Shown here one piece after another: positions 2,686 through 63,352 of a DNA stretch of 64,000 nucleotides (position 1 is its first letter; every line of letters starts with the position of its first letter). The notes under the pieces were generated by a model. The model worked only from the letters and a program-made list of their open reading frames with translations. It had not been told where the DNA came from and did not search any database. This DNA is from Isurus oxyrinchus (Eukaryota). The stretch lies in NCBI GenBank assembly GCA_026770705.1, contig JANJGN010000020.1, positions 8,122,001 through 8,186,000 of the forward strand, given 5' to 3'. A program made the translations under genes and the position numbers.

Positions 2686-4806
2686 ATCCCCTGTCAGATA
2701 TTACTTCAAGTTTAACTATGACAGCATGATAGGGACACAGATTCCAACTAATAAAAGGAAAATTTCAATCTGATGCCAGGAAGGTCTTTACCCAGGGAGT
2801 GACTGGAAAGGACTTTGGATAGAAAACCCTGTTGGATGTTACAATGAGAACTCTAGGGCGTTTCATGAAAGATGAGCTAAGATCGGCCTTCCCCTCCCAT
2901 GTTTACCTTAGGACCTTGAGATAAGATACATACTTTTCTCGTTCTTCAGGCACAGGTGTCAATTTTTTTCTCCCACTTTTGATCCCAATTCTAACCACAG
3001 ATTTTGGATCTTCTCTTTTTTTCTTGTATTTATTCTGAACTGCCTTTGATTTTCTTTAAGATGATGGAGGTTAGGAGGGCAAACTGCTACTTAAATGTCT
3101 CAATATTTGTGGGGCAATAGGCAGCAGAAATTCCCTGCTGCACTATGAGGGCACAACTTGTGTACAAGACGCTTTCTGCTTTTAGCGCCAAACCAAAACC
3201 CAGATATCTAGTCCTGCATGTATATATGGTACTTGAAATGGCTGAGTGTTGTGTGTGTATATTTTCCTCCTTGCATATAAGAGCCCTATCTTCTCAATGA
3301 AGCACTGACAATGAGGGTTAATCTGGCTGAGCTCAAACACTCCAGGTGGTTCTGACTGCTGTGGGTTAGTAAGAGAAGTGTAGGCTGCAGCCTCAAGAAA
3401 AGCCCCCTGAACTTGTTGCTAGGAGACTTGACTAGATACTTTTAGCCATTTGTGTTATTTATAGATTTAAAAAAAAAATTGTCTGCCAGTGGTTGTGAAC
3501 ATGCAAGGCTTGTACAAATGCAAACTTCATTCAATGTGATTCTAAAGTCCCTTTTATCTTATTTCAACTCTTTGTACTTTCTTTTGTTTCCTTGTTGCAC
3601 ACCAGTGGCTTAGAGGATGTTTAGCTAGGCAAAGTTATGCTGCAGCGAAAAGACAAGCCAACAGTATAGTGGATCTCCTCGGGGCCTCTGAGCGAGCTGG
3701 CAGGGTAGCAGAATCCTTTGTCCCTGCTCTAGATTTACGGTGACCTTCAGGCACCGTGTTATTTTGGTCTACTTTGTGCTGCTTTATAAGTCAAATGAGA
3801 AGGTGATCACTGACCACACCATTTCTGATTCCTCGTACAGTCTCGGACACTTGGTTTAGCTGCAGCTTTCAAAGATTAGCAGTGTGGATGACAATAGGAA
3901 TTCAAATCCCTGTTACGAATCATTGAGCCTGCTCATCATTTAACCAGGACACCTGGTTCATTCTAATTCCCTCCTGCCTTTTCCCTGTATCCCTTAGTAG
4001 TTCTAAAGCAAGGATTTGAGTGTAGAAGTCTGAGCAAAGGCGGTGTCAGGTTGCTTAGAGTTAGAATGGGCAAAATTAGCAACTGGGCAAAAACTGCGAA
4101 TAAGTGGCAACAAGGCAATGTCTGGGGATGTGTAGGCTCCCCTCACCCCCCCCAAAAAAAAAAAAAATTTTAAAAGGTAATAAAATGGCCATTGTCAGTT
4201 CTTGGAAAGCAACTGTAGATTTTCATCACTTGAACTTTGCAGTAATGGGACAGACACAGGTGAAAACCAACCATTATTGTGGGGAGGGGGGAGTGATCCT
4301 CGGTCGAACGAAAAGGAAGACATTTCGGAAGCGCTGGTGTGGGAGGTGACATCGCCAGCAGATGCGACGGAGAAACTGAAGCATGGGGATGAAGTCTTTC
4401 AAGGAAGCTGGGTGGGCAGAAATATAATCAAGGTGGCTGCGGGAATCAACTGGCTTACAGTAGTACGGTATTTAATGAACTCTTGATGGAAATAAACCCA
4501 TATATTTAAAATAGAAAGCATTAATTATAAAGCAATCAGGTTATTTTAAATTGATGCTGTAAATTAAACAACTTAATGCTTTTATGAAGTATTCACAGCA
4601 CAGAAACGGGCCATTCAGCCCACCATGTCCCTGCAGGTGTTTGTGTTCCACATAAACCATTTTAAACGCCTTTATCAAAATGTCAGTGATTTTTCTAACT
4701 GTTTCACTGGCCAATGCAGCCATGATCTTTTCTGGTGTTAGCTCTGAAATGTAATGTTTACCCTTTGCGGACAATTTCTAACTGCCTGTCATTTTATGGT
4801 TGACAG

Positions 4807-5415
4807 AAAATATGTGATGAATTGCTGAAAGTGCTGCAGAAAGACCTGGGACCATCCTGTCAAACCACCTGTTTAGAAACGATCCGTATTCTCTCCAGGG
4901 ACAAGAAGGTTTTGGCTCCTTTGACGACCAGGCCGGCAATGCTGGCCCTAATGAGGCTGGCTGGATTGGAGGATACGCAAAGTTCGGTGCAGGAGATGTC
5001 CAATTTTAGTGTTAAAGTTGAGGCTTTAAAATGTCTGTGCAACATTGTATTCAACAGTGAGAAGGCACAGCGACTTAGTGTGGACTTTAAGCTCGCCGTT
5101 GGAGTATGTGAGCGCTTAAAGATGCACAGAGACAAAAACCTGTCTCATGAGATTAAGTTCTTTGACTTGCGCCTCCTTTTCCTACTGTCAGCATTGCAGA
5201 CGGACATCAGGGCTCAGCTAAAGGAAGAACAGGGGCTACTGTTGCTGACCGATATCCTAGAGAACACACTGGACATCAAGTGGTCAGATAAATATGTGGT
5301 AGACACAGATTGCAGGCATCCTCCCTTGTCTAAAGAGCAGGCAGATTTTGCCATGGAGGCACTAAAAGCTCTCTTTAACGTCACCTATGACTGCAGCCAG
5401 AAGAAAATTGATGAC
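4807..5415 (+). CDS. RIC8B: RIC8B (G-alpha chaperone/GEF) large internal coding exon, equivalent to exon 3 (609 bp)
   Basis: Acceptor tgacag|AAAATA, donor GAC|gtaagt. Translates KICDELLKVL...ILSRDKKVLAP...EALKCLCNIVFNS...FDLRLLFLLS...EALKALFNVT...KKIDD. ILSRDKKVL and EALKALFNVT are RIC8B-type, not RIC8A-type. Confidence 0.93.
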
Positions 5416-6014
5416 GTAAGTTTCCCATTTTTATCTAATGCTTCATGGCTCTGTGCCCAGATATTCGGACAAGAGAACAGATGTTTGAGAGATTATATCG
5501 TGTTACACTCTGAAGATCTTGCTAGGCTGAGGTACAAGAAACAATAGAAGACCTGGTATTGGAGCTGAGGGGGCATGATGATTCATTATATTGGAACGAT
5601 TCTGTAGGTCAGGGGAGAGAGAGTATTAAATGCACAGTTAAAGGTTTCATTGCTAGAACTTCCATAGTTAAATATACAGATGCCATGCTAATGATATAAG
5701 TGAATGTGGTCTGTTTTGGAATATGGGCTTTATGTTAATAAAACACTTGATTGATCCTCATACTTTAATTAGTTCCCTCCTTCGAGGTGCTATTCTAGAA
5801 GAAAACATTCTAAACTATTTTTGAAACATTTTATTCTATAGTTAAGCACAAACTGAAATTAAGTGGTGAGAGGAGGGAGCCAAACTCTGCTGCTCTTGTG
5901 CACAGTGTTTCTTCATCTCTCTTCCTGCAGCCCCTTAGTTTTATACCATTGACCTTGCTGTAGATGCAATTGGTAGCATACCCATCTAGGAATGTACTTT
6001 ACAGAACAGTTGCA

Positions 6015-15256: not shown

Positions 15257-16790
15257 TTTTTTATTTATTCATGGGAGGTGGGCATTGCTGGCTAGGCCAG
15301 CATTTATTGCCCATCCCTAATTGCCCTTGAGAAGGTGCTGGTGATCTGCCTTCTTGAACTGCTGCAGTCCATGTGGTGTAGGTACACCTGCCGTGCTGTT
15401 ATAGATGGAGTTCCAGGATTTTAACTCAGCCACAGTGAAGATATGGTGATATATTCCAATTCAGAGTGGTGAGTGGTTTGGAGGGGAACTTCCAGGTGGT
15501 GGTGTTCCCATGTGTCTACTGTCCTTGTCCTTGTAGGTGGTAGCAGTCATGGGTTTTGAAGGTGCTGTCAAAGGAGCCTTGGTGAGTTGCTGCAGTGAAT
15601 CTTGAAGATGGTACACGCTGCTGCTTCTGTATGTTGGTGGTGGAGGCAGTGAATCTTCATGGATGGGGTGCCAATCAAGTGGGCTGCTTTGTCCTGGATG
15701 GTGGCGAGCTTCTTGAGTGTTGTGGGAGCTTCATTCATCCAGCCAAATGGAGAGTATTCCATCACACTCCTGACTTGTGCCTTAAAGATGGTGGACAGGC
15801 TTTGGGGATTTAGCATTCCTAACCTCTGACCTGCTCTTGTAGCCACAGTATTTATATGGTTAGTCCAGTTCAATTTCTGGTCAATGGTAACCTCCCCCAG
15901 AATGCTGATAGTGGGGAATTCAGCGATAATGCCATTGGATGTCAAGGGTTGATGGTTGGACTCTCTCTTGTTGGAGATGATCATTGCCTGGTACTTGTGT
16001 GATGTAAAAGTTACTTGACACTTGTCAGCCCAAGTCTGAATGTTGTCCTGATCTTGCTGCATTTGGGCATGGACTGCTTCAGTATCTGAGGAGTTGCGAA
16101 TGGTGCTGAACATTGTGCAATCATCAGCGAACATCCCTACCTTTGACCTTATGATGAAGCAGCTGAAGATGGCTGGGAGGAACACCTGCACAAATGTTAC
16201 TTACACTTGTCAGCCCAAGCCTGGATATTGTCCCGGTCTTGCTGCATCTGGACGTGGACTGCTTCAGTATCTGAGGAGTCTCGAATGGTGCTCAAAATTG
16301 TGCAATCATCAGCGAACATCCCTACCTCTGACCTTATGACGAAGGAAAGTCATTGATGAAGCAGCTGAAGATGGTTGGGCCTAGGACACTTACCCTGAAG
16401 AACTCCTGCAGTGATGTTCCAGAGCAGAGATGATTGATCTCCAACAACCACAACCATCTTCCTTTGTGCTAGGTATGACTTCAACCAGAGGAGAGTTTTC
16501 CCCCGATTCCCATTGACTCCAGTTTTTCTCGGCTCCTTGATGCCACACTCGGTCAAATGCTGCCTTGATGTCAAGGGCAGTGACTCTCACCTCGCCTCTG
16601 CAGTTCAGCTCTTTTGTCCATTTTTGAACCAAGGCTGTAATGAGGTCAAGAGCTGAGTGGTCCTGGCAGAACCCGAGCTGAGTGACCTTGGCAGAACCCG
16701 AGCTGAGTGACCTTGGCAGAACCCAAACTGAGCGTGTGTGAGCAGGTTATTGCAAAGCAAGCTAAGCTGCTTGATAGCACAGTTGTTGAC
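15257..16790 (-). mobile_element. Family B LINE 3' part with internal duplications
   Basis: VGMFADDCTMF, ALDIKAAFDRVWHQG; family tail at 15257-15330. Confidence 0.88.
16650..16724 (+). repeat. 3 x 25 bp tandem repeat inside the LINE
   Basis: gagctgagtg(g/a)(t/c)c(c/t)tggcagaaccc at 16650, 16675 and 16700. Confidence 0.9.
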
Positions 16791-23350: not shown

Positions 23351-25348
23351 GTAAGGATTTGATAAGTTCAAAAGGAAAATAAAGTTATTTGATTCTTTTC
23401 TTCCCCCCAACCCACGGTGATATAAAAGAATTGTAAAACGATCTAGCTGTCAACTGGCTAAACTTTAACCAGTCCCCGGTTATTGTTTGGAAAACTAGGA
23501 GGTGAAGATTCATATTAAAAACATAAAGAGCATTTCAAGCACACACACGTTTCCTCCTTTTCTTGTGCAGCCTCACATTCTACCTTCAGTCTCCATGGGT
23601 TTCAAATGAATTAGTCATTTTCGTTGTGGGGCTTTGTCACAGAATTCCTGGAAGGCTAAAAAAGCTACATCGTACAAACTTTCACCGTCTGTTTCATTTG
23701 TGGCATCCTTAAAGTCAAGGTGGTATGCCAGGAGGACATTCCCTGTCCTAACTCCATGCTGACTGTTGCTGATTCAGTGATTACTGTGCGGGTACTACTC
23801 CTTGGTATTGTTTAGCACCTCTGTTCTAAATCCCTTGCAATTCATCTTGTATCTATGGCCTCTCATTCTTAACTTTTCAACTATAGTTTTTTTCTAATTT
23901 CATTGACATAATCACAGAATTGTTGCAGCTCAGGCAGCCATTTGGCCCATCATGTCTATACTGGCTCTCCTGAAAGAGCAATTTGCCCAGAACCATTGCC
24001 CTGCCTTCTCCCTGTGACCTTGTGCATTCTTTCCTCTCAGATAACAATCCACTTTCCTTCTGAATGTCTCACACAGAAACGTAGTTCTTATTTTATGTTT
24101 AGTTTATGGTTAGATTAATTAGTTTAATATACCAAGTCTATGAAGTGCTAGCTGGATGAATTCCCATTAACTGCTGGAAAGATTGTTTGGCAGACTTTTT
24201 TTAGAAAAAAAATCTTTATTGTTTGGAGTATTTCTTGCAATCTATGTGATTTTAAAAGAAAGATATATAAAAAAATCTCCTGTCACACTTTAGTTAAAGT
24301 GGAGTTTTGTGGCCAACAAATATTCCATCTTCACCTCACTCCCACTTCACTGAAACCCTTCTCCACATCATGGCCACCTCCAGGCTCGAGTTCTCCAACA
24401 GTCTCCTCAGTGACTTCCTGAGATCCACCCTGCACATACTCCAGTCCATCCAGTACTTCCAACACCTAAACCCTGCCCCATATTAAGTCCCAATTGTTTG
24501 TCATCTGTAACCTCTCCTACTGCAGTAAATTCAATCTTCATTCCCCTTTGTAGATCATTTTGGGGTCTTGTCCCAATCATCTTGTATCAATCAGTGTTCC
24601 CTGGATATTGATTCTTCTGCCAAGGGGAACAGTGTTTCTCTCTCTCTCTCTCTCTTTTGAACACCTCTATCCAATCTTCTCTCAGCTGCTCCAATCTATC
24701 CACATAACGGAAGTCCTTTCAAAGATTATAGCTGTAAAAGTAACCCAATTGCATGTTGTGGTGTTTCCGATCTAACTTTGAAATGTTCCCCTCATGAAAA
24801 TAAAGCCAGTTTATAATAAAGTGCGACTATTAAATGGTTAACTGAGTTTGCTAACTATGAAATGAAAAAGCTCACTGATCAAGTAAAGACAGACGTTGGT
24901 GGCAAGGCGGAGAATAGGGAGCCTCCATATACCAGCTGCTGCACACCTCCTAATGGCCAATTACACAACAACAGAGGAGAATAATGTTACAGAGATGCAA
25001 AGATGATGGAACCTACAGGAAGTAAAAATTAAGTATGAGTTTGTTAATATTTTAAGGTTTGCGATACTCAAAGCACAATCGGGAACCCAATTACTTACGT
25101 GAGATGTGTTTTTGTGACATTTGAGATGTGATGAGGTGTTGGTATAAGTGCAAATTCATTTTTCAAGTTTACTTCTCAGTTATATTCAAAGTCTGGTGTA
25201 ATTTAACTGTTTGACCTGCAGTTAAATTGATAATTGCCAGTGAGTGACCTACCATTAAATAAATATTACCCAGCGGGTTCAGACCATGCGTGTTGTATCA
25301 TGATGTGTCAAAACTTTTTCTAAACTATTGCCATTTTTGCATTGGCAG

Positions 25349-25493
25349 GTCCTGCCTCCTTTAAAAGATGTAAAGAATCGTCCTGAAATTGGCACCACAC
25401 TTAGAAATAAGCTGGTACGTCTCATGACCCACATCGACACTGGGGTGAAACACACTGCAGCAGAATTCCTGTTTGTGCTGTGCAAAGAGAGTG
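25349..25493 (+). CDS. RIC8B: RIC8B coding exon (145 bp)
   Basis: ggcag|GTC...AGTG|gtgagc; [48 protein letters not shown]. Confidence 0.95.
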
Positions 25494-26712
25494 GTGAGCA
25501 TTGGTGTAACTTCATCTCCTATATTTCACTCCTTTATTGTGGTTAATGGAAGAGGCCCACACGTTTAGGTTCTGATCAACATGATGTTGATTAGTGACAT
25601 GTTTGATGCTAATTGGATTAAAGTGTGATGTGAGAGCAAAATCTGGTCACTATCGATCTCTTAATGTAATAAAAATCTGTGTGTACTTCCTGTCAACTGC
25701 TTTCAGTGAGAACTTCCTATGTAAACTTGTCACGCTGTAATCAACCCTCCCACCAATGGTGGTGCTATAGGGCCTTAGCCTTACATGAAATCATAAAATG
25801 AGGATCCTTTCAATTTAGTTCCTTTGCAGACACAGTTGTAGGGTTTACAGGCTGGTTAGATCTTACATGCCTCTAACTCTCACACAAGCTCCTCACTGTT
25901 TATACCTAGCTTTCCCTTTGAATGTAAATTTCCCATTGTATTACTTGGTGTTTTAAAATATTACCTCGCCTAACAATAAGCCTTTCATTCCACCAATTTT
26001 ATTAGTAATATAAACACATTGCTTGGTGTCTCCCAGCTAGGTGCAAGATTTTATTTCCTTCTTTTGAATGGTTTATTCAGCAAATGCGAATTGCTCTTTA
26101 TCTTTCACTCCTTACGTTTATCTAATTACCATCTCAAACTACCATACATCAAAGCACCCAGACGAGTTGTCTTTAATCCGATTCCCTCTCTGTCTCACTA
26201 ACTCTCTCACTCACTCACTTACCTACACTCCCCATTTAAAAATAATTTCCAATAACTTTATACACATTAATATCTTTTCATGACACCGAGTTTTGAGGAA
26301 AGATTTTTAAAGCAGCATCTGGAGTGCATTGCCTGAAAAGATGTGGAATAGTAACTTTCAAGAGGAAACTGGATTAATGCTTGAAAATTGTGGGGCTATG
26401 AGCACTGAGCAGAAGAGTGGGACAAATTGGATACCTCTTTCTAAGAGGCCTGACGGGCTGAATGGCATCTTTCTGTGCTGGATGATTCTGTGATCAGATA
26501 AATTCTTAGTTACTAACGATATCCAAAGTACATTAACGCTCCGTTTCAGATATTTTGCTAATGTCTACCAGTGAAACGTAGCGGCAGCACAAAAACATAA
26601 AACAACGTTTACCTCTTAATCCTAAACTGTGCTAATTGATTTTCAGCATCTACTTGGAAAATGCATCTGCAGGGAGGGATGTAACTTACTGATGAATGTT
26701 TCTTTCTTCCAG

Positions 26713-41004: not shown

Positions 41005-43965
41005 CTTTTTTTTAATTCATTCATGGAATGTGGGCTTTGCTGGCTGGGCCATCATTTATTGATTTATTGCCCATCCCTAGTTACCCTTGAGAAGGTGGTG
41101 GTGGGCTGCCTTCTTGAGCCGCTGCAGTCCATGTGATGTTAGGAGGAGAGTTCCAGGATTTTGACCCAGTGACACTGGAGGAACGGTGATATATTTCCAA
41201 GTCAGGAAGGTGAGTGACCTGGAGGAGAACTTCCAAGTGGTGGTGTTCCCATTAATCTGATGTCCTTGTCCTTCTAGATGATAGTAGGTTTGGAAGGTGC
41301 TGTCTAAGGAGGCTTGGTGAATACCTGCAGTGCATGTTGTAGATGGTACACACTGCTGCTACTGTGCGTTGGTGGTGCAGGGAGTGAATGTTTGTGGATG
41401 CGGTGCCAGTCAAGCAGGCTGCTTGAATGGTGTAAAGCTTCTTGACTGTTGAGGGAGCTGCACTCATCTAGGCAAGTGTAGAGTATTCCATCACATTCCT
41501 GACTTGTGCCTTGTAGTTGGTGGACAGGCTTTGGGGAGTCAGGAAGTGAGTTACTCTCTACAGAATTCCCAACCTCCGACCTGCTCTTGTAGCCACAGTG
41601 TTTATATGGCTAGTCCAGTTCAGTTTCTGGTCAATGGTAACCCCCAGGATGTTGTTAGTGGGCGATTCAGTGATGGTAATACCATTGAGTGCCAAGGGGC
41701 GACGGTTAGATTCTCTCTTGTTGAAGATAGTCATTGCCCGACACTTGTGTGGTGCGAATGTTACTTGCCACTTGTCAGCCCAAGCCTGGATATTATCCAG
41801 GTCTTGCTGCATTTGGACAGGGACTGTTTCAGTATCTGAGGAGTTGCGAATACTGCTGAACGTTGTGCAATCATCAACGAACATCCTTCCATCAATAGGT
41901 CAGAAGTAGGGAAGATCTTTGATGAAGCAGCTGAAGACGGTTGGGCCAAGGATACTATCCTGAGGAACTCCTGTAGTGAGTCCTGGAGCTGATATGACTG
42001 ACCTCCAACAACCACAACCATCTTCCTTTGTGCTAGGAATGACTCCAACCACCGGAGAAGTTTGCCCCGATTCCCATTGACTCCAGTTTTGCTAGGGCTC
42101 CTTGATGCCACACTCAGTCAAATGCTGCCTTGGTGTCAAACGCAGTCACTCTCACCTCACCTCAGGAGTTCATCTCTTTTGTCCATGTTTGAACTAAGGC
42201 TGTAATGAGATCAGGAGCTGAGTGGCCCTGGCGGAACCCAAACTGGGCATCAGTGAGCAGGTTATTGCTAAACAAATGGCACTTGATAGCACTGTTGATG
42301 ACCCCTTCCATTACTTTACTGAGGATGGAGAGTAGACTGATTGGGGTGGTAATTGGCCTGGTTGGATTTGTCCTGCTTTTTGTGTACAGGACATACCTGG
42401 GCAATTTGCCACTTGGCCGGGTAGATGCCAGTGTTGTAGCTGTAGTGGAACAGCTTGGCTATGGGCGCGGCAAGTTCTGGAGCACAAGTCTTCAGTACTA
42501 TTGCCAGAATATTGTCAGGGCTCCAATCCTTTGCAGTATTCAGTGCCTTCAGTCATTTATTGATATTACATGGAGTGAGTTGAATTAACTTTTGACTGGC
42601 ATCTCTGATGCAGGGGACCTCCAGTGGAGGCCAAGATGGATCATCCACTCGGCATTTCTGACTGAAGGTTGTTGCAAATGTTTCAGCCTTATCTTTTACA
42701 CTGATGTGCTGGGTTTCCCCATCATTGAGGATGGAGATATTTGTGAAGCCTGGTCCTCTAGTGAGTTGTTTAATTGTCCACTACCATTCATGACTGAATG
42801 TGGCAAGACTACAGAGCTTAGATCTGATCCGTTTGTTGTGGGATTGCTTAGCTCTGTCTATCACTGCTTATGCTGTTTGGCATGCAGGCAGTCCTGGTGT
42901 AGCCCCACCAGGTTGACACCTCATGTTTAGATATGCCTGGTGCTGCTCCTGACATGCCCTCCTGCACTCTTCATTCAACCAGGGTTGATCCCCTGGCTTT
43001 GTGGTAATGGTAGAGTGGGGGATATGCTGGGCCATGAGGTTACAGATTGTGTTCAAGTATAATTCTGCTGATGGCCCACAGTGCCTCATGGATGCCCAGT
43101 CTTGAGCTGCTAGATCTGAAAGAAATCTATCCTATTTAGCACAGTGGTTGTGCCACACAACACAATGGAGGGTATCCTCAATGTGAAGGTGGGACTTTGT
43201 CTCCACAATGACCGTGCAGCAGTCACTCCAACCGATTATGTCAAGGACAGATGCATTTGCGGCAGGCAGGTTGGTAAGTAAGTATGAGGTCAAGTATGTT
43301 TTTCTCTCTTGTTGGTTCCCTCACCACCTGCCGCAGACCCAGTCTAGCCGCTGTCTTTTGGGCCTCGGCCAACTCAATCAGTAATGGTGTTACCAAGTCA
43401 CTCTTAGTGATGGGCATTGAATTCCCTCACCCAGAGTATATTCTGCACCCTTGCCACCCTCGGTGCTTCCTCCATGTGGTGCTTAACATAGAGGAGCACT
43501 GATTCATCAGCTAAGGTTTCCTTGCCCATGTTTGACTTGATGCCATGAGACTTCCTGGAGTTCAAAGTCAATGTTGAAGACTCCCAGGGCATCTCTTTCC
43601 CAGCTTATCTCTGCAGAGATGGTGGTGTCTGCGACATAAGGGATATGATTCTTTGAGGATGACTGTCAGGCTGATGTTATTAAGGAGGGCTTTGCAGGGT
43701 CGACAGGGCTGAGTTTGCCGTTGTTGTTTCCGGCACTTAGGTCATTGCCAGGTGATCCGTCTGGCTTCATTCCTATCTTGAGACTTTGTAGTGGTTTAAT
43801 ACAATTGAGTGGTTGGTTTGCTAGGCAGAGGGCAGGCAGCAGTTAAGAGCCAACCACATGGCTGGGCCTGGAGTCACATGTAGGCTAGATTGGCAGATTT
43901 CCTTCCCTAAAGGGCATTAGTGAACCAGATGGGTTTTTACAGTTGTCAATGGTCATGGCTGAAAC
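41005..43965 (-). mobile_element. Near full-length (about 3 kb) family B LINE with a partial SINE-like head
   Basis: Tail at 41005-41100; RT (PISLLSILSKVME, QFGFRQGHS, MFVDDC); APE (EFNAHH); head-related sequence at 43810-43965. Confidence 0.88.
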
Positions 43966-46482: not shown

Positions 46483-46954
46483 TGGGGCACCTTCTATCCC
46501 TTCGCGGAACTCTGCCTTTCTTTAATTATTTTCACAGGACCTGTTTGCCAGAAGGAAAAAAAATGGTTTCCAGCCTGGAGTGCAGATGATGCATTAGGTC
46601 ATCTCTAAAGCTTCCTGACAGCTGTACAGAAAGGCTGGCCTTATCTGCAGAGAGGATACTTTCTATTTATTTCTTTTGCACCATCTTTATACCATTGTTT
46701 GTAAGGCCAGAGCACTATAAGTTTCCAGTGTCATCCAGTTCCACAACTGACAGCATCAACAGTCACTGGAGTTGGAATGAAAGGACTGCCATTCTGGATT
46801 GATCTCCACTGGGAAGCAATATGAGCAGAACAGAGTGCGTCGTATCAGAGAGAGTGAAGTGACTGTTCCAGAATTACACTGTACAGAATCGTGCTTGGTA
46901 TATTTAAATTACTCAATGTATTGAAGTTAGTCCAACAACATCTAAATTTTTAAA

Positions 46955-47175
46955 AACTTGCATTTTCAGAGTATTTCACAGCATGTCACAAACGATTCAT
47001 TATTTCTGAAATGTAGCCACTGCTGTTATGTAGGTAAACACGACAACCATTTTGTGTACTGCAAGGCCCCACTACTAACATGAATGACCAGCTGATCTGG
47101 TTTTGGTGCTGCTATTGAGGGATGGAAGTTGGTCAGGACACCAGGTGAATGTTTCTGCTCTTCAAAACAATGTGC
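46955..47175 (-). mobile_element. Deu-domain SINE fragment in the presumed RIC8B 3' UTR
   Basis: Reverse complement gives gaagagcag...ggtgtcctgaccaac...ccctcaa...cagatcagctggtcatt...acaaaatggttgtcgtgtttacctacataacagcagtggctaca. Confidence 0.65.
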
Positions 47176-49484: not shown

Positions 49485-50885
49485 AACTTGGTAATGTTGC
49501 TGGACTAGTAATCCAGAGGCCCAAGCTAATGCTCTGGGAACATGGGTTCAAATCCCAACCTGGCAGCTGGTGGAATTTAAATCCAATTAATAAATCTGGA
49601 TTTGAAAGCTAGCCTCAGTAATGGTGACCATAGAACTAACACTGATTGCTGTAAAAACCCTACTCGTTCACTAATGTGCCATCCTTACCTGGCCTGGCTT
49701 ACTTGTGACTCCAGGCCCATGCCCACAGCAATGTGGTTGACTCATAAGAAAGTAAGTAGTAGGAGGAGGAGTAGGCCATTCGGCCCCTCGAGCCTGCTCT
49801 GCCAATCAATAAGATCATGGCTGATCTGCTTGTTCTGATTTGATTCCCTTGCTCCTTGTGTCCTCTTCACAGCATACTTTCCTACTGATCTTTGTATCAC
49901 CTGCAACTTTAGCCACCATGCCATCGCTCCCTTCATCTAAGTCATTGATGTAAATTGTAAAAAGTTGAGGCCTTAGCACAAACCCCTTCGGGACTCATGG
50001 AAACTAGGAGCAGGAGTAGGCCATTCGGCCCTTCGAGCCTGCTCCACCATTCATTATGATCATGGCTGATCATCCAACTCAACAGCCTGCTCCCACTTTC
50101 TCCCCATACCCTTTGATCCCTTTCGCCCCAAGAGCTATATCTAACTCCTTCTTGAAAGCATACAGTGTTTTGGTCTCCATTCATCACATCCTGCCAATCA
50201 GAAAAAGACTCATTTGTGCTTCCCTGTTTTCTCCCAGACTGCCAATCTTCTATCCAGGCTAATACGTAACCTCCTCCACCATGAGCTTTTATTTTCTGCA
50301 ATAACCTTTGAGGTGGCACCTTATCAAATGCCTTCTGGAAATCCAAGTACAGCATGTCTACAGGCTCCCCTTTATCCACAGTACATGTCACTTCAAAGAA
50401 CTCCAGTTAATTGGCTAAACATGATTTTCCTTTCACAAAACCATGCTGACTCTTCCCGATTACTTTGCATTTTTTTAAGTGCCCAACTATAACCTCCTTA
50501 ATGACTGATTCTAACAACTTCCCCACAACAGACGCCAAGCTAACTGCCCTATAGTTTCCTGTTCTCTGCCTCCCTTCCTCCTTGAATAGAACGGTTGTAT
50601 TTGCTACTTTCCAGGCTGATGGAACCTTTCCAGAACCAAGTGAATTTTGGAAAATTAACACCAGTGTGTCTCCTACTGCATTAGCCACCTCTTTTAAGAC
50701 TCTAGGATGTAGTCCATCAGGACCCAGAGACTTGTCAGCCCAGAGCTCAGCACCTCTCCCTTTGTGACTAATAACTGCCCTCTGAAATGATCTATCAAGC
50801 CACTCAGCTCAAGGGCAGCTAAGGATGGGCAACAAATGCTCACCTTGCCAGTGACGCCAACATGCCAAGAAAGACTTTTTTTAAA
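49485..50885 (+). mobile_element. tRNA-headed SINE split by a CR1 (49748-50764, - strand) that itself holds a CR1 3' fragment (about 49995-50175)
   Basis: The SINE halves join across the insertion, flanked by TGACTCATAA/TGACTAATAA; CR1 motifs YLDFQKAFDKVP and SQHGFVKGKSCL. Confidence 0.8.
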
Positions 50886-53483: not shown

Positions 53484-53750
53484 TCACTCCATCTCCGATT
53501 CAGAAGGTTCTGATGCAGGAGAATTCTCTTCAGAGCTGCTCTCAATGCAGGAGTGATCTGTGCTGTCAATGGGTGAGCTTTTCGATGCATCACAGTTCTG
53601 CCCCTGGGCTTTTATACCTGGCCCCATGTAGAATTTTGATGCCACTTGGTGATAGACGAGTGATCTGATCCTCCGCTTGTTTAGTGCAAGGTTACCTGGA
53701 ACCATGGGTCCTGGGTCAGTTCTGTTCTGGATGGGAGCACCAGTTTCATG
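53484..53750 (-). pseudogene. Probable terminal exon of the SIRT3-like gene (Ser/Glu-rich tail)
   Basis: Acceptor ttacttgtgtcacag|CAT; open frame HETGAPIQ...SSSEENSPASEPSESEME*; non-repetitive and followed by AATAAA about 400 nt downstream. No conserved motif confirms it. Confidence 0.5.
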
Positions 53751-54415
53751 CTGTGACACAAGTAAATGGGTCAGATGGTTTATTAAACTGGAGAGTCACG
53801 TTTGCAGCCTCTACCAGGCCTGGAAGCGGACTCTTTTAAAAAGTTAATCTCACCTAAGAGTTGGTCAGCTCTTAAAAAGAGGAACAAATGCAAATACTGG
53901 TGATACAAAAAAAACTGCTCAATCAGTACCCGGGCTTGCTCACCTACATTTGCCCACCCATCTCCACCTTCTAATAAAGGCTCAGTGTGGAAATTTCTCA
54001 TCCTCATTTTCAAATCTCACTCCTGCCTATCTCTGTAACCTCCTGCAGCTCTTAAACCCTTTCTGTCAAACAACATCTTAAACTGGTACCGAGAAAGGGG
54101 GCGGGGGTGTATAATAAGAAGATAATGCACATTTAGCAGCAAGTAAACAGAGTCTGCTTGCTCAGATTTCCCAGTATTTTAGTTTTATGACTTCATGGGG
54201 ACATGTTGGCAAGATCACCAAAAAAAAAAGACGAGTTAAAGGGAACAGAGAAGGGACAGGTGGGGTGGGGGGGGGGAATGAAGTGAAGAGTTCCCACTGA
54301 CCATCAGCAAAAAGCAGTGGGTCAAATGGGCAAGAAAACTAGATCCATGCTGGCTGTCCAAATAGATCCATCCTCTTTCCCTATCCTGCCTAAATGGAGG
54401 AAACGGTGAGGTTTA

Positions 54416-54812
54416 GGAGAGGCGGTGGCATAGTGGTACTGTCACTGGACTAGCGATCCAGAGATCCAGGCTAATACCCTGGGGACATGGGTTCAAATCC
54501 CATCATGGCAGCTGGTGGAGTTTAAATTCGACTAATAAAAAAAATCTGGAATATAAAAAAAGCTAGTCACAGTAATGGTGGCCATTGTCATTAAAAAAAA
54601 AACCCATCTGGTTCACTAATGTCCTTTAGAGGAAGAAATCTGCCGTCTATACCTGGTCTGGTCTACATGTGACTGTAGACCCACAGCGATGTGGTTGACT
54701 TATAATTGCCCTCTGAAATGGCCTAGCAAGTCACTGAGTTCAAGGGCAATTAGGGATGAGCAACAAATACTGGCCTTGCCATTGATGCCCACATCCAATG
54801 AAAGAATAAAAA
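54416..54812 (+). mobile_element. Best-preserved tRNA-headed SINE copy
   Basis: A box TGGCATAGTGG (54426-54436), B box GGTTCAAATCC (54490-54500), family B tail caagggcaattagggatg...gaataaaa. Confidence 0.88.
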
Positions 54813-55663
54813 GGGAAGAGCTTTCTCAAGGGTGTGGTGACTGGCCTCTTCCTGTGCTGCATGGTAGAGTGAGGGGGGAGTTCACCTGGATCACTGGAAT
54901 AAGTTCTTGGTGCTTCACAGCCTAGGTGGAAATCTAATGAAGCGAGTATCTCTCTGGCCACAGGGTGGAGAGATCAACATGGACCTCATCTGGGAACTCG
55001 TTACAAGAGAATATGATCGAAAAAAATTCCGAAATTGAGTCAGATGTTGGTAACTTTGCCATTTCTGCATATAAATACCAACTTGAAGGTTAAACTAAAT
55101 GGAGTTATTATTTTAGGCAGTCTTAGATGTGATATTGGATCAGAGACACAGGACTGAGAGAAATTGAGATGGAAAGAAATAGAATAATTTGTACATTAGA
55201 ACATCCCATTAGTTGAGAGGACACAGACTAGGGGTACACAGGTTTACGATTTTGGGCAAGAGATATGACGTGGGGAAGGGGCAGAACATGGGGATGATTT
55301 CATTTATCTCGCACAGCGAGCAGTGATGACCTGGAGCGTTCTGCCCACAGAGGAGGTGGAAGTGGAGGCAGTGAGTGATTTCAAAAGGAAATTGGAGGGC
55401 ACTTGAGGGAATTGGGGGATAGAGCGGTGGGGGGATGGAATTGCCTGGATCGCTCCACAGATAGCCAGCATGGACTTAATGGGGCAAATGGCCCCCTCCT
55501 ATGCCATAAAAGCTGCTGCTTAAGGTTGTTAGTATTGCTTATTTTCTGCATAAATAAATAATCGACATGGAAAATGTCAAAGTACGATAGATTTGCAAAG
55601 GCTTCCAGGAATATAGAAGATATTGCAGATTTTAAATGACATTCACGAGACTTTCCCACAAAC

Positions 55664-55885
55664 ACCCATCATTTTGTGTGTCTGCACCTTGATCAGTTTG
55701 TCCAGGTCAGTGATCCAGCCCCGGAGTTTCACCAACAGCCAGACGCTGTTGCTCAGATCGCCCAGTTTTCTCACGTCCGTGAGTTTCAAGGGAGTTTGTT
55801 TAAAAGGGCCAACAGGATCCCAGTTCAGGAGCAGGCGAGGCACATGAGGCTACACAGAATTCACAATGCTTGCGAAAGGTTCAGT
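55664..55885 (-). pseudogene. SIRT3-like exon with an in-frame premature TAG
   Basis: atgtag|ACT GAA CCT TTC...; TEPFASIVNSV*PHVPRLLLNWDPVGPF...LGDL...GW.... The donor is uncertain: the exon could end at 55688, 55666 or 55664. Confidence 0.85.
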
Positions 55886-56364
55886 CTACATTCAGGAAGA
55901 GAAGATGCATAAGATTACATAGGTCGTACAACACAGAAACAGGCCATTCGGCCTAACCAGTCCATGCTGTCGTTTGTGCTCCATTCAAGCCTCCTCTAAT
56001 CTTTCCTCATCTATATCAGTGTAACTCTCTATTCCCTTCTCCCTCGTATGCTTGTCTGTTCTCTCCTTAAATATATCTGTGCCAGTTGCTTCAAATGGCT
56101 GTATTCACAGAGCTGTTACCAAAATCCAGAATAAATCACACATGGCAGGCTGAACAATAGCACTCAAATACACGCAAGTTTGGGTCAGGTCAGATGTTAA
56201 CATTTTAAACAGTCTGAAAACTCTGCACCTCCCCACCCCCTCCCCTCCCCCCAACCCCATTCCCTCCAAATGCCCTTTCCAGGTTTAATGGAGGTGGCAC
56301 AAGGGATGGGCAATTAACCTGTTCCCAGAAGGGCAGGTTGGCAATTTAACTTTTCCTTTACCCT

Positions 56365-56733
56365 TTCGCAGGATGTGGGCAAGGCCAGCATTTGTTGCCC
56401 ATCCCTAACTGCCCTTGAACTGAGTGGCTTGCTGAGGGCAGTTAAGAGTTAACCACATTGCTGTGGGTCTGGAGTCACATGTAGGCCAGACGAGGTAAGG
56501 ATGGCAGATTTCCTCCCCTAAAGGACATTAGTGAACCTGATGGGTTTTTACAACAAGCGATGATAGTTTCATGGTCATCATTACAGAGGCCAGTTTCCAA
56601 TTCCAGGTTAATTGACTGAATTTAAGTTCCAGCAGCTCCCGCGGTGGGATTTGAACCTGTGTCCCCAAGAGCATTAGCCTGGACCTCTGGTTTACTAGTC
56701 CAGTGACATTACCACTGCTCCACCATCTCCCCC
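56365..56733 (-). mobile_element. tRNA-headed SINE
   Basis: Reverse complement of the 54416 element, including the B box. Confidence 0.85.
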
Positions 56734-56911
56734 AAAACATGGCAATGAGGCTAGCAGCCTCAGATTTCACCCGATTTAACCCAGACTTCCGGACTTGCAT
56801 CCAGCCTCCACCCACAGAACCTATTAACCTGCAAGCGGAGTCTAGTTAGAATGGGACCGATGGCTGAATGGCCTTTGCCCTATTCTGATTTTCCAGTGTT
56901 TGCATGGGGGC

Positions 56912-56933
56912 GCACACACACACACACACACAC
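56912..56933 (+). repeat. (CA)n microsatellite
   Basis: Direct inspection. Confidence 0.9.
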
Positions 56934-57003
56934 GCCCTCCTGGTCATTGCAAGAAATTAACCAGCCGGAGAGTACAACAGAAGCAGGGGAGCAGTATCTC
57001 TAC

Positions 57004-57165
57004 CTCCAATGACGTTCCCGTGACAATCAGCAGGTCACTCCGCTTAAAGTCCTTCCTGTACGAGGAGAAGCTTTTAGGAAGACTTCCACCAAAAAATACA
57101 ATGCCGGGTTTCACGACTCCCAAACAAGTTTCCCACCTTGGAATTTCATCGTTTAGAATTGCAGC
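57004..57165 (-). pseudogene. SIRT3-like exon (162 bp) with a damaged second CxxC
   Basis: ttccag|GCT...GAG|gtagag; AAILNDEIPRWETCLGVVKPGIVFFGGSLPKSFSSYRKDFKRSDLLIVTGTSLE. Confidence 0.88.
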
Positions 57166-57182
57166 CTGGAAGAGAAAAATAT

Positions 57183-57448
57183 NNNNNNNNNNNNNNNNNN
57201 NNNNNNNNNNNNNNNNNNNNNNNNNNNNNNNNNNNNNNNNNNNNNNNNNNNNNNNNNNNNNNNNNNNNNNNNNNNNNNNNNNNNNNNNNNNNNNNNNNNN
57301 NNNNNNNNNNNNNNNNNNNNNNNNNNNNNNNNNNNNNNNNNNNNNNNNNNNNNNNNNNNNNNNNNNNNNNNNNNNNNNNNNNNNNNNNNNNNNNNNNNNN
57401 NNNNNNNNNNNNNNNNNNNNNNNNNNNNNNNNNNNNNNNNNNNNNNNN
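57183..57448. other. Assembly gap
   Basis: Run of 266 N. Confidence 1.
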
Positions 57449-59321
57449 GCGAACAAACTTACAAAGCACTCTGCACAAATCGATAGCTGAGCTACAGGCA
57501 TTGGACCCAATCTCGTGGCATTGTTTACTTTCATTAGGGGGTATTGTAGGGTATCTCAGAGTGAAGAGTTGGTAAAAAAAGTGATTCCTAAAGTTGTTTT
57601 GTCTCCTCGATAAAACTGTTACATGGCCCTGGATTGACACCTGAGCATCTATTTACTACAATCACATATCGGCGCGCAGCTACAGCCATTGGTGGCTATG
57701 GTGCTGAACCCAGTGTTGCTAATCAGGGACTGAGAGTTCAAATTCCAACAGGGGCAAGATGTGAAACTGAATTTAATAATGTGTCCGGTGCCCTGATGTC
57801 ATTCAGAGGATGGGAACCTGCCACTTGACCTGGTCCAGATGTGATGATAGACAATATGGCTGACACTTAATGACCTTCAGATCCCCAAATCCACCCTCGC
57901 CAGTGTCACCCCCATCCCAAAAACAAACCTACAATGTTTCACTAACTGTTTTGTTCATGATATAGGAAGAGTCAGTTAACAAACCTCTCCTACTTGGGTA
58001 AGCCATGAAAAGAAACATTTTTACTTGAATGAATTTCTCAGACCTTCAAACCACCCCCCCAACACCTTATAAAACAGCCCAGTGAGGTATTCTTTTAACT
58101 CATATATCTCCAGATGAGGGCAACATAGAAACAGGGAGAGGCCATTCAGCCCCTCGAGCTTGCTTCCCCATTCTATCAGCCCAGGGCTGATCTGCGCTTC
58201 ACCCCCATTTACCCATCTTTGCTCAATATCCTTTAACACCCTCAGCCAACAAAAATCTGTTGATCTCAGTCTTAAAAAGCTCGAACCGACCTCCAGCATC
58301 AACAGCCTTTTGGGGGAGTTGGGGGGGGGGAAAAAAGAGTTCCAGATTTCCAATACCCTGCCTCCTGGCATCACCCCCAAACAGCCTGGCTCTAACTTTA
58401 AGGTTCTATCCCCTTGTTCTGGACTCCCCCAACAGAGGAAACAGAATCTGCCCTATCGAATCAAACACATTTACCCTAACGACCAAGAGCACGAACAGAC
58501 CTGCAGCGTATTTGCCTTATACATCACTAACCCATCCGAATTCTCACCTCAAAGCATGCACCAAATTCTGGGTTGTTGGGTATAGAACTTACCAGAATAA
58601 TTTGGACTTTAAAGGAAGGGGTTGGAAACAGAGACTGAGGATGGAAGCTTGGAATGTTAGGCCACCGAGTTCATTCAATCTTAATAAATATTCTTTACAG
58701 ATTTGCAGGATGCATCTCAGAAGTTGCATCGCGAAGCTGTCTGCAATCTCCGGCACACTTCTCCACCTGTTTGCTTCTCCCTGTAGCTTTGATACCGTTA
58801 ACAGACATTGATAATCAACTCCTTTATGTCCAAAATAATTCCCATTTAACCGGGACCTTTTAAAATCTGATTTCAGTTTCTACTTGTCTCTACATCAAAA
58901 CCCTCTTGCTTCTCCATTGTACTGAGGGCTTTAAAGAAGATTTCCGTTCTTTAACCTTATCCCCACACTTGTCAGTACTAAACTGCATTTGACATTTGTC
59001 TGCCCAATCTCAGGGCTTTTTGATGTCCGCCTGCACATATCTTTGGGAGGGTTGGCGGCAAGGGAGAGGGGGGTGTAGAGAAGGAAAGGAAGAAAGAGAA
59101 AGAAAAATGGAGAAATAGAAAAATATTCCCTCAGTACAACACAGGGAATGTCAGCCAGGATTTTATGTTGAAGTCTCTGGAGTTGGGTTAAAACCCACAG
59201 CTCTCTGGCTCAGAGGGAAGAGAGCAAACCCACTGAGCTATAGCTGCCACATTAAAGGGGCACAACTTAAGTGTTTTCTAGAGCCCAAAGTTACCCACCA
59301 CCGACTATTCTGACCACTTAC

Positions 59322-59422
59322 CTTTGCTTTTTCTGACGGATGTGATGAGTTGCACAAGGAACAAGATGCAGTTGAAAAAGTGCCGTGAGCTTCTACCAGT
59401 CTCTGCGAAGGAATCCCAGCCG
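59322..59422 (-). pseudogene. SIRT3-like exon (101 bp) with the catalytic His and first CxxC
   Basis: gtgcag|CG...AAG|gtaagt; (A)AGIPSQRLVEAHGTFSTASCSLCNSSHPSEKAK. Confidence 0.9.
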
Positions 59423-59984
59423 CTGCACAAAACATGGGCACGTTAACCGGGGGCAATTCCAAATGGAACAAACGTGAAAATCAAACGCTGCTTTAAGTCA
59501 GTGTAACTTACATAACATCTCCTTCCACCATTGTGTCATTATCATGGAACCTACCCTCACTGGCTCCAGAGTGACCCTTACAATGTACAGGAACAGCAAA
59601 GGCCCTTTCAGTGGAACTCATGCAACATCTGGGTCATTTTAGTACAGAGTTAACGCAAAGCGAGAGGTGAAGGTGCAACAGAATTGGGGCAGAAATCAAA
59701 ACCTGGAGGTTCGAGGTATCAGTCCTCACGTTGTATTTGATGTTAATTTTTCTTTAAGGAGGGTCCCTTAATAGAAGTGTGTGCCTTAAATACAATCTTC
59801 CAATTGTAATTTTAATATCTGTATTTTCACTGGCAACCCAAGATAAAACTGACATCTTGACATCTATCTGAATTTGCTTATCCAATGGGATCAGGCATTG
59901 ACATCCTCCCCATTTGGTGGCATGTCCGGCGCGGAGCAAGTAAATGGGACAAAATTAGTTCACTCGCATGGACAGGTCATCTCC

Positions 59985-60350
59985 CCACCACCGACGCACA
60001 GTGGCAGCAGTGTGTGTACCATCTACAAGATGCACTGCAGCAACTTACCAAGGCTTCCTAGATAGCACCTTCCAAACCTGTGACCTCTACCACGTGGTAG
60101 GACAAGAGCAGCAGATAGATGGGAACACCACCATCTGCAAGTTCCCCTCCAAGCCACTCACCATCCTTCACTGTCGCTGGGTCAAAACCCTGGAACTCCC
60201 ACCCTAACAGCGCTGTGGGTGTACCTACACCACACGGACTGCAGCGGTTCAAGAAGGCAGCTCCCCACCACCTTCTCAAGGGCAATTAGGGATGGGCAAT
60301 AAATGCTGGCCCAGCCAGTGATGCCTAAATCCAGTGAACTAATAAAATAA
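59985..60350 (+). mobile_element. Family B LINE 3' end, about 45 bp from the sirtuin splice donor
   Basis: Well-preserved 3' segment and tail gggcaattagggatgggcaataaatgctggcc. Confidence 0.85.
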
Positions 60351-60392
60351 AAACGCCCCACATGCCTGCAGAGAATTTAAAGGCCACCCTAC

Positions 60393-60625
60393 CCTGCTCT
60401 AGTCCATCAATATTCTGTGTGTATGTTCGCAATAAGAGGCTCTTTTCATGCAGCAAGCGCAGGAAGTAGTGGATGTCGTTCGGCTTGTAGGTTCCAGGAT
60501 AGAGACTCTTGGCTAGACAGAAGAATGGTTTTGGATTCCAGCTGAAAAAGTCGATGTCGAAGATGGCCTCGGGGTAGGGGATGTCATACTGCTTCAAGTT
60601 ATCATACAGGCCACTGCCTGGTGTT
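60393..60625 (-). pseudogene. SIRT3-like exon (233 bp)
   Basis: ctgaacag|A...CAGG|gtaggg; [27 protein letters not shown]...[10 protein letters not shown], typical class I sirtuin motifs. Confidence 0.9.
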
Positions 60626-61089
60626 CTGTTCAGGGAAAAATGGTGGGGGGAGGGAAAGGGAACAGTTAAAGGCTGCGGTCGCTTTAAGTTAAGAATTACA
60701 TGTGCCCCCTCCTCCTGAGTCACTTAACACAGAGCCACATAATAAATACGCCTCAACTAGTGACCCAGGAAGCAGGTGTATGTCCGAAGATGAAGTCCAT
60801 GGTTCTTTCAACCCTTTTACATCACTCTAACTCCTGGGTAACCTACAGAAGGCATCTCAGGACTTGTGATCCCTGCACCAAGTCTCCTTAGGCAAAAATA
60901 TCTTCCAATTCGCTGGGATGGTAGCAAAGCCCATGTGTTTGCCCCATTAGTGTCCGACTGTACCTGTGCTGGAGCTTTGGTGATTGAAGCCCCATTTCAC
61001 TGGCTTGACCACATGTGCCAAAATCCCAAAACATCTAGTTTATTCGGGGAGAGAGAGAGAGATAAAGATTGTGTGAAATCCAAGATACG

Positions 61090-61257
61090 GAATTTTTAAA
61101 AATTATTCGTTCATGGGATGTGGGCGTCACTGGCTGGGCCAGCATTTATTGCCCATCCCTAATTGCCCTTGTTCAGAGGGTATTTGAAGAGTCAACCACA
61201 TTGCTGTGGGTCTGGAGTCACATGTAGGCCAGACCAGGTAAGGACAGCAGATTTCCA
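61090..61257 (-). mobile_element. SINE 3' part
   Basis: Tail plus ...ccacattgctgtgggtctggagtcacatgtaggcc. Confidence 0.8.
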
Positions 61258-61569
61258 CTGGATAAACACCAAGTTAGAAGAGTTACTTTAATGGAAAAGG
61301 TCTAGTTATTAACTGAACAACCAATCTCCAGACCCAAGACTACTCGTGAACAATACCTCAGGGGGTCTGCATGGACAGGAGTTATACTTAGAGGTCGGTT
61401 CAGTGATTGTGGGTGCAGTGTACCCGAGACTGATGTACATCATTCTAAGAGTGAAATTTTTATTCTTTAAAAAAAAATGGTGAGATGAAATAATTTATCA
61501 ATCACCAGGAAACTGTTAACTTATAGAATCTCACAGGACAGAAAACAATAGCTGCTATTATTAATGGTT

Positions 61570-62918
61570 CTCTTTCCTCAGCCATGGTCCCTCTCTCCTT
61601 CAAATTTACCCCGGAAAACCAACCCTTGATCCCTCCATCCTTACGAATGACCGTTCAATCTCCAACCTCCCTTTCCTCTCCAGGGGCCTCAAACCTGTTG
61701 TCACCTCCGAATCTATGATCATCTTCCCCGGAACTCCATGTCTGAATCCCTCCAATCAGGTTTCCATCCCTGCTGAAGTACCGAGACGGCTCTTATCAAA
61801 ATCACCAATGACATCGTGTGTGACTGTGATGATGATAAACTTTCCCCCCCTCATTCTTCTCGACCTGGTCTGCAGCTTTTGATGTGGTTAACCACACCAT
61901 CCTTGCCCAAGGCCTCTCCAGCTGAATGGTGCTGCACTCACCTGGTTCCACTCTCATCTATCTAATCCCACTCAGAGTATCACTTCCAATGGCTTCTCTT
62001 CCTGCTCTCTCACCGTTCCCTCTGGTATCTCCCCACCCCCATGATCTTTCTTTGATCCCCGCCTACTTATCTATTTTTTTTTCACTTTGGTGACAACATC
62101 TGAGGGCAGAGTGTTAGTTTTCACATGTCGGCTGACAACACCCAGCTCTACCTCACCACCACCTCTCTCGACACCTGCACTGTCACTGAACAGTCACACG
62201 ATCCGACATCCAGTACTGGAAGAGCAGAACTTCCCTCCGATTAAACATTGGGAAGGCTGAAGCCATAGCTCTCAGCCCCTGCCCCAAAATCTGTTCACGA
62301 GCTATCTGATTTCCATCTCTATAACATAACCCAACTTCACACCTGCCGCAGCTCATCTGCCTTTATTCCCTCTCAACTCTTAGAATGATGTACTCTTAGA
62401 ATGATGTACATCCAACGCTGGTCACCTGCCTTCTCCTCTCTGTAAACTTGAAGTCATCCAAAACCCTGCTGCCCGAGTTCTTACTCATGCCACGTCCTGT
62501 TTATCCTCCTCATGCTCGCCGGCCTACTTTGGCAGGTCAAGCAACACCTCGATTTTAAAATTCTCATCCTTGTTTCCAAATCCTCCATGGTCTCAGCTCT
62601 GTAACCTCCTCTGGCCGTACAACTCTCCGAGATAGCTGCTCGCTTCTAATTCTGGCCTCAAGCGTCCCCAATTTTAATTGCTTCATTGGCGGCCGTGCCT
62701 TCAGCTGCCAAGCTTTGGAATTTCCTCTCGAAAGCTCTCCGCCTCTCTTCCCTCCTTTAAGACAGTCCTTAAAGCCTACTCTCTTTGACCAAGCTTTGGG
62801 TCACTTGCCCTAATAACTCAGGTAGCTCAGTGTCACATTTTTGCTTTGTAAAGTTCCTGGGAAGCACCTTGGGATGGTTTATGATGTTAAAGGTGCTATA
62901 TAGATACAAGTTGTTGTT
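61570..62918 (+). mobile_element. Decayed L2-clade LINE
   Basis: LQSGF...STETALIKITNDI...SAAFDVVNHTIL...ADNTQLYL; tail aaaggtgctatatagatacaagttgttgttg. Confidence 0.8.
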
Positions 62919-63169
62919 GGATGAGGCTGCCACTCAACCCATTGTGCTGGCTCTTTGAAAGAGCTGTCCAATTAGCTGCCCTGGCCTCAGAAACCGGCAA
63001 ATATTTCCCCTTCGAGTATTCATCCAATTTCCTTTTGAAAGTTACTATTGAAACTGCTTCCACTGCGCCTTGTCACCGATTTTTAAAAAAAAGTTTTTAG
63101 CTCCCTCCAGAGTTCCACTGATGAAAACAAATCAGCCTTGCTGGATATTCTCTCTCCGATCGGACTCAC

Positions 63170-63352
63170 TGGAAATCTGGAATCCCAGTGGATGTGCTGA
63201 TTCCCGCCCCGGTCATCACCACAATGTTCCTGTAACGATGATTCCCAATTTGTGCAGCAATATCATGGAGGCTCAAGAGCTTGGGGCCAACCTTGACTGA
63301 AGAATTTGGGGGACTTTTTGAATGAGGACCAGTGGCTTTTGCCTTTCCCTTC
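63170..63352 (-). pseudogene. SIRT3-like (SIRT3.2) exon carrying the GAGIS motif (equivalent to exon 2)
   Basis: Minus strand taataaag|G...TTCCA|gtgagt; KGKAKATG...LSLHDIAAQIGNHRYRNIVVMTGAGISTSTGIPDF(Q). Not in the ORF track; the acceptor is less certain than the donor. Confidence 0.85.

Follow-up and report, generated by a model that had tools for sequence, protein, structure and literature searches.

Decay of the sirtuin gene SIRT3.2 in a lamniform shark: a probable unitary pseudogene that shares a zinc-site lesion with the white shark

All jawed vertebrates other than amniotes are reported to have kept SIRT3.2. The only cartilaginous fish named is the elephant shark (Callorhinchus milii), in which SIRT3.2 is a mitochondrial deacetylase that depends on nicotinamide adenine dinucleotide (NAD) and is transcribed mostly in the ovary (PMC9897032, in the sections consulted). 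The published account has only amniotes losing SIRT3.2; here we describe another loss. The locus lies in 64,000 nucleotides of Isurus oxyrinchus DNA (contig JANJGN010000020.1, positions 8,122,001 to 8,186,000), referred to below as the window, and the SIRT3.2 gene it carries is probably a single-copy unitary pseudogene. The animal is a lamniform closely allied to the white shark but distinct from it. A literature search found no earlier report of SIRT3.2 loss in sharks, most subscription papers and the species table of PMC9897032 lying outside that search.

The gene is on the minus strand and the window holds six of its exons, given here in order of transcription together with the premature stop and an assembly gap. 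Residue numbers are those of human SIRT3, taken from the match to PDB 8BBK.

63170-63352, minus strand: first SIRT3.2 exon in the window, with the GAGIS motif and GIPDF; bears S152T and R158Q
60393-60625, minus strand: exon 2, 233 nucleotides, the helical module with the TQNIDGLE motif; open
59322-59422, minus strand: exon 3, 101 nucleotides, with the catalytic His (human H248) and the first CxxC, both retained; donor GTAAGT intact
57183-57448, no strand: assembly gap of 266 N in intron 3, 17 nucleotides upstream of the exon-4 acceptor
57004-57165, minus strand: exon 4, 162 nucleotides, with the second CxxC; C280W, D290G, E296G and M318T
55688-55885, minus strand: exon 5, 198 nucleotides, with the premature TAG, R345W and L378R; donor GTGCAG
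55850-55852, minus strand: the premature TAG of exon 5 (CAG, Gln, in the white shark)
53484-53750, minus strand: last exon, 267 nucleotides, with a Ser/Glu-rich tail and TGA at 53486-53484

All five introns are GT-AG, and the joined frame of 1143 nucleotides has a single internal stop (TAG, 55852-55850) and no frameshift, bearing out the original prediction that exon sizes, frames and most splice sites were intact. An AATAAA lies about 400 nucleotides past the TGA. Further 5' exons, with the N-terminal mitochondrial targeting region, are outside the window, because residues 1-67 of catshark SIRT3.2 found no match within it. Exons 3, 4 and 5 each end at a phase 0 junction, so that a transcript skipping exons 4 and 5 would stay in frame.

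The damage was judged against an alignment of the window with three shark SIRT3.2 proteins, 109 non-elasmobranch SIRT3.2 proteins, 17 SIRT3.1 proteins and three outgroups. The 109, mostly teleost, exclude short frog isoforms and non-vertebrate proteins; 12 were placed by tree and the others assigned by rank and name. Besides the stop, the six substitutions named in the original prediction are all present: C280W (TGG at 57135-57133, giving PRW), D290G (GGC at codon 193, KPG), E296G (GGA at 57087-57085, FFGG), M318T (ACG at codon 221, TGTSL), R345W (TGG at codon 248, LLNW) and R158Q (split codon CA/A at 63171-63170, GIPDFQ). Two more had escaped it, S152T at 63189-63187 (S in 126 of 126 references) and L378R (L in 123 of 125). 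The description of the affected residues as near-invariant held for R158 (126 of 126), C280 and E296 (125 of 125 each); it did not hold for D290 of KPD, which is D in 109 of 125 rows, or for R345 of LLNR, which is R in 118 of 125, Q or K in the other seven, and W in a catshark. Across the 126 reference SIRT3 and SIRT3.2 rows 61 columns are invariant, and the window departs at four of them (S152T, R158Q, C280W, E296G). When each reference was left out in turn, 109 showed no departure, 13 showed one, two showed two, two showed three and none showed four. The white shark departs at two of the 61 (C280W, P289A), and Mustelus and the catshark at one each.

Not every change counts as damage. LLNW was a weak proof of loss, as catshark P0147/P0242 carry the W with all four cysteines, and MTGAG for MAGAG was set aside as a lesion, Mustelus having MTGAG too.

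Of what marks an active class I sirtuin, the window gene keeps the catalytic H248 and three of the zinc cysteines; it lacks the full set of four cysteines, R158 and E296, and its reading frame does not stay open across the whole Rossmann fold. The place of R158 near the NAD-binding loop, the binding of the substrate peptide by E296 and the role of H248 are all described in one source (PMC10859967, in the part consulted). Cys280 belongs to the zinc site of SIRT3, and its modification inactivates the enzyme (PMC4297931, likewise in part). The sequence thus predicts an enzymatic null, through the stop and the loss of R158, C280 and E296, which agrees with the earlier view of a disabled gene. The TAG codon stands at the position of human residue 335, 162 nucleotides upstream of the last exon junction. 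Transcripts with a stop more than 50-55 nucleotides upstream of the last junction are subject to nonsense-mediated decay.

The identity of the gene as SIRT3.2, also proposed originally, is established by a tree and by its neighbour. A 30-row tree places the window gene as sister of white shark P0001 (support 100/99), within a four-shark SIRT3.2 group (100/100), within chondrichthyan SIRT3.2 including the elephant shark (98/94), within a SIRT3.2 clade (100/99) that stands apart from SIRT3.1. The SIRT3.2 placement was recovered again with support of 100/100 in a core-only tree of 18 rows. A search with exon 2 (1132 matches of 1163 candidates) gave the same neighbours, white shark XP_041071610.1 (P0001) at 97% and then Mustelus asterias XP_078077204.1 (P0002) at 87%. 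On the plus strand lies a RIC8 gene, tail-to-tail with SIRT3.2:

4804-5544, plus strand: open frame with a large RIC8B exon, syntenic marker of the SIRT3.2 locus (Synembryn-B 209 bits, Synembryn-A 142)
25304-25543, plus strand: open frame with a later RIC8 exon

The bit scores identify it as RIC8B and not RIC8A, a call that matters because human SIRT3 itself adjoins RIC8A. The gene in the window is the SIRT3.2 orthologue at its ancestral, intron-containing locus, RIC8B being the described neighbour of SIRT3.2 (PMC9897032, section 6; PMC11172991; both consulted in part). The genes expected on its opposite flank, TMEM263, MTERF2 and CRY1, would lie past the end of the window.

The white shark protein shows when the decay began. 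P0001 is 94% identical to the window over the core, differing at 16 of 247 residues, and both carry C280W, R345W and G220S. P0001 has Gln at the stop position and intact R158, D290, E296 and M318, and it has lesions of its own, P289A and I272T. A nine-residue insert after its exon 3 matches the read-through of intron 3 of the window at eight of nine positions. Where the window donor GT would encode Val the insert has Ile, and another GT follows after 27 nucleotides; the protein model thus suggests that the exon-3 donor was lost in the white shark (GT>AT). The model starts at the GAGIS motif and has cryptic donors after exons 3 and 5. It is the one SIRT3.2-type protein of the white shark, in a cluster of one member, and this RefSeq 'sirtuin-3' is probably a dead gene annotated as coding. 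At the DNA level we took run X9 (organism C) as white shark because it has the P0001 residue at 12 of the 12 listed replacement sites of exons 4-5; it has CAG at the stop position and no listed difference from the window at 57133-57135. Another organism C run, X18, from a different study, did not cover exon 4 or 5. Run X5 (organism B, depth 3.3) covers 55560-55848 and so ends before the stop codon is reached. It departs from the window at ten places, three of them listed, and has W at 55741, one derived codon in common with the window.

Of the 16 core differences nine were placed on the window branch and five on the white shark branch, with two unpolarised; eight of the 16 fall in columns at least 95% conserved, of which there are 129, or create the stop. 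The branch common to both species carries 15 residue changes, eight in exons 2-3 and seven in exons 4-5. In exons 4-5 the two species are separated by 13 replacement differences (12 listed, and I272T from P0001), two silent ones and at most three more that are unlisted. The ratio of replacement to silent rates (dN/dS) is 2.4 at kappa 2, and 1.0 if the three unlisted differences are all silent. The data reject a ratio of 0.2 (p = 5.5e-5, or 0.0014 in the worst case) but are compatible with 1.0 (p = 0.18). Positive selection was considered and set aside, a ratio above 1 not being supported (p = 0.12-0.26). The rate in these exons is raised, with 13 of 260 replacement sites changed against at most 8 of 489 intron positions (p = 0.01), the compared introns leaning towards low divergence. 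In the 18-row core tree the distance from the four-shark node to the tips is 0.152 changes per column for the window, 0.132 for the white shark, 0.063 for Mustelus and 0.040 for the catshark, and the shared branch of window and white shark has a length of 0.11.

Since C280W is common to both species and exons 4-5 change in a neutral-like way, constraint on SIRT3.2 lapsed before the two split, and both copies have been decaying in parallel without frameshifts. The TAG is a late, secondary event. The intact look of the gene reflects few substitutions overall (16 of 247) and not necessarily a young loss. Since two species decay in parallel from one shared first hit, the order of the lesions can still be read. 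The claim that the loss was recent and confined to this shark lineage is therefore not supported: the white shark has C280W and LLNW, CAG at the stop position, and lesions of its own. A dN/dS near 1, the value proposed as support for loss, was seen in exons 4-5 (1.0-2.4); exons 2-3 look constrained. The split itself is presumably some tens of millions of years old, if both sharks are lamnids. No date for it was found in the part of PMC11886822 consulted.

The history we propose starts with SIRT3.2 at its ancestral locus beside RIC8B. Before parting from the white shark lineage it acquired the 15 changes of the shared branch, among them the replacement of the third zinc-ligand Cys by Trp. From what is known of sirtuin structure, C280W should remove a zinc ligand, cripple the deacetylase and so end selection for the enzyme. 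After the split exons 4-5 changed at about the neutral ratio in both lineages, the window lineage losing the NAD-loop Arg and the substrate-binding Glu and finally gaining the stop, and the white shark lineage gaining P289A and I272T and, if its protein model is read correctly, losing the donor. The stop would make the mRNA a target of nonsense-mediated decay, and any product would be without the C-terminal Rossmann strands. The loss may have been tolerated because mitochondrial deacetylation is left to SIRT3 (SIRT3.1), an explanation already put forward for amniotes.

Several observations weigh against this history. The stop is known from one DNA sample of the species, and single-copy status is taken from the partly read runs X1 and X9. 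SIRT3.1 of the window species and of the white shark was not seen. There is no frameshift, and the catalytic His and all splice dinucleotides are kept. The shared branch carries no stop or frameshift and its changes are mostly conservative, so that it was not neutral throughout. The conservation of exons 2-3 fits least well. They differ from P0001 at one of 111 residues (exon 2 at one of 78), against 13 of 120 in exons 4-5 and 2 of 16 and 6 of 84 in the other exons; the scan-corrected p is 0.012 at even rates, 0.047 at a coefficient of variation of rates of 0.3, and 0.14 at 0.5. All 15 listed organism C runs contain 0.18 of 33 words sampled from 60353-60760 (6 of 33), and in simulation that share needs at least 3-5 DNA differences in exon 2, which hints that most of the differences there between the window and organism C are silent. 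The likelihood ratio for a dN/dS of 0.1 over 1.0 in exons 2-3, a post hoc and indirect figure, is 8 if neutral divergence is 2% and about 70 if it is 3%. If the word share is accepted as it stands, the balance tips towards purifying selection on exons 2-3.

Such selection would be explained if the enzyme were dead and a short, non-catalytic product of exons 1-3 were still selected, ending in intron 3 or made by splicing exon 3 in frame to the last exon and so skipping the stop, for which the phase 0 junctions are suited. Once the ancestor had lost its zinc site, selection would have preserved exons 2-3, the front half with the helical module and the catalytic His, as a non-catalytic pseudo-sirtuin while the back half decayed in each species. 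The contrast between exons, the silent differences implied by the word share and the likelihood ratio all favour this. Yet the case is post hoc and its p value rises to the upper figure above when rates vary, and the word share is an indirect estimate. R158Q and S152T sit in the very portion said to be conserved, the established structure makes it unlikely that half a Rossmann fold would fold, and the sequenced part of intron 3 holds no AATAAA and one ATTAAA. We regard a selected short product as unlikely, and its retention as a pseudo-sirtuin since that ancestor as equally so.

A history of two separate later losses, the alternative closest to the original prediction, is about as improbable. 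It holds that C280W was tolerated in the common ancestor and that the gene then died independently in each species. All catastrophic lesions other than C280W are private to one species, as it would expect, and the clean shared branch and the conserved exons 2-3 suit it too. C280 is, however, C in every one of the 125 references, the shared branch is already long, and a dN/dS of about 1 over the summed branches in exons 4-5 demands that loss came soon after the split in both lineages.

The DNA itself appears sound. Single contigs of run X1 cover 55560-55961 and 56944-57182 and show no listed difference from the window at 55852, 57020, 57086, 57104 or 57133-57135. This bears on the read check that had been proposed for the stop and for 57085-57135; X1 may be the source sample, and then it is not independent, and its listed differences omit 11 rows. 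The agreement covers six of the seven lesions, 63170 being outside the compared stretch. X1 contigs differ from the window at 56750 and 56772, where the animal was probably heterozygous. The difference at 56772 shows that a contig may hide one of two alleles. Assembly error at the lesions is unlikely.

That the gene is a dead duplicate with an intact copy elsewhere in the genome is very improbable. Nothing positive speaks for it, the gene is in the ancestral syntenic position, and the white shark's only SIRT3.2-type protein is the damaged one. At 85% likeness each run gave one contig for each of exons 4 and 5, at the depth of neighbouring unique DNA (X1, 76% of the run read; X9, 48% read). Least probable of all is that the lesions are errors of assembly or base calling, or belong to a rare allele of the individual sequenced. 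The gap adjoining exon 4 and an allele hidden by the contigs might lend colour to this, but the X1 contigs match the window at the lesions compared, C280W and R345W recur in an independent species, and organism B has the W at 55741, so that at most the stop alone could be polymorphic.

SIRT3.2 may be decaying more widely among elasmobranchs. In a search with the Mustelus core (8000 candidates scored, lengths 193-615), chondrichthyan SIRT3.2 made up four of the 120 matches listed, from Mustelus, the white shark, Scyliorhinus torazame and the elephant shark. The clusters of these four proteins held no further species, and a search for shorter proteins gave no short or truncated shark or ray SIRT3.2 model among the best 120 of 2205 matches. 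SIRT3.1 was found in seven elasmobranch species, five placed by tree and two (Stegostoma and Rhincodon) by cluster, and in six of the seven a SIRT3.2 protein is absent from the annotation: protein searches found none for Heptranchias, Heterodontus, Pristis, Stegostoma, Rhincodon or Scyliorhinus canicula, all of which have SIRT3.1. This hints at six candidates for further losses.

Two of the shark proteins are themselves irregular. Scyliorhinus torazame P0242/P0147 has R345W and P299A, and ends near window position 53606, where the window has a CAG codon. It thus lacks the acidic, Ser-rich tail that the window shares with coelacanth, gar, sturgeon and lungfish; mild decay of SIRT3.2 in catsharks too is possible. 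The Mustelus model P0002 is without the N-terminal region, and its last 55 residues match window 46953-47117 on the minus strand at 71%, a stretch interrupted by stop codons in the window and 6.4 kb past the true last exon. This C-terminus is probably a model artefact or reflects a lost last exon.

Repeats occupy much of the surrounding sequence. A high-copy interspersed repeat lies in the SIRT3.2 introns at 54412-54815, 56365-56736, 59981-60352 and 61090-61256 (7-10 matches in the window, with very high summed depth). Broken reverse-transcriptase-like frames lie in and around RIC8B at 1275-2615, 15568-16746, 41558-42780 and 49942-50808, a pattern we take to be typical of long interspersed nuclear element fragments.

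A link between SIRT3.2 loss and regional endothermy was considered and found unsupported: SIRT3.2 survives in the swordfish (P0219) with no departure from the invariant columns and in the opah (P0174) with one. The opah is an endothermic fish. Regional endothermy is described in lamniforms, billfishes and tunas (PMC11886822, in part), and the optimum of the elephant shark enzyme is about 24 C (PMC9897032, in part).

Loss of a redundant paralogue is common in itself. The present case flags the RefSeq white shark model, and if the wider losses are true, sharks offer replicated losses for asking what SIRT3.2 does, with its expression in the ovary as the lead (PMC9897032, section 7, consulted in part).

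Among known systems, the best solved relative is human SIRT3 (PDB 4BN5, 8BBK; 321 bits with P0001), a paralogue of the window gene from the SIRT3.1 clade. The elephant shark SIRT3.2 (XP_042191035.1, P0149) is of the same lineage and RIC8B-linked, with 63-73% identity to exons 1, 2, 4 and 5 of the window; compared with it the window copy has a premature stop and is without R158, C280 and E296. The loss in the amniote ancestor, as described in the sections of PMC9897032 consulted, struck the same paralogue at the same syntenic position, with SIRT3 presumably covering, and the shark loss is independent of it. In amniotes, however, SIRT3.2 is almost erased, with a one-exon trace in turtle, whereas in the window every exon seen and every splice site survives.

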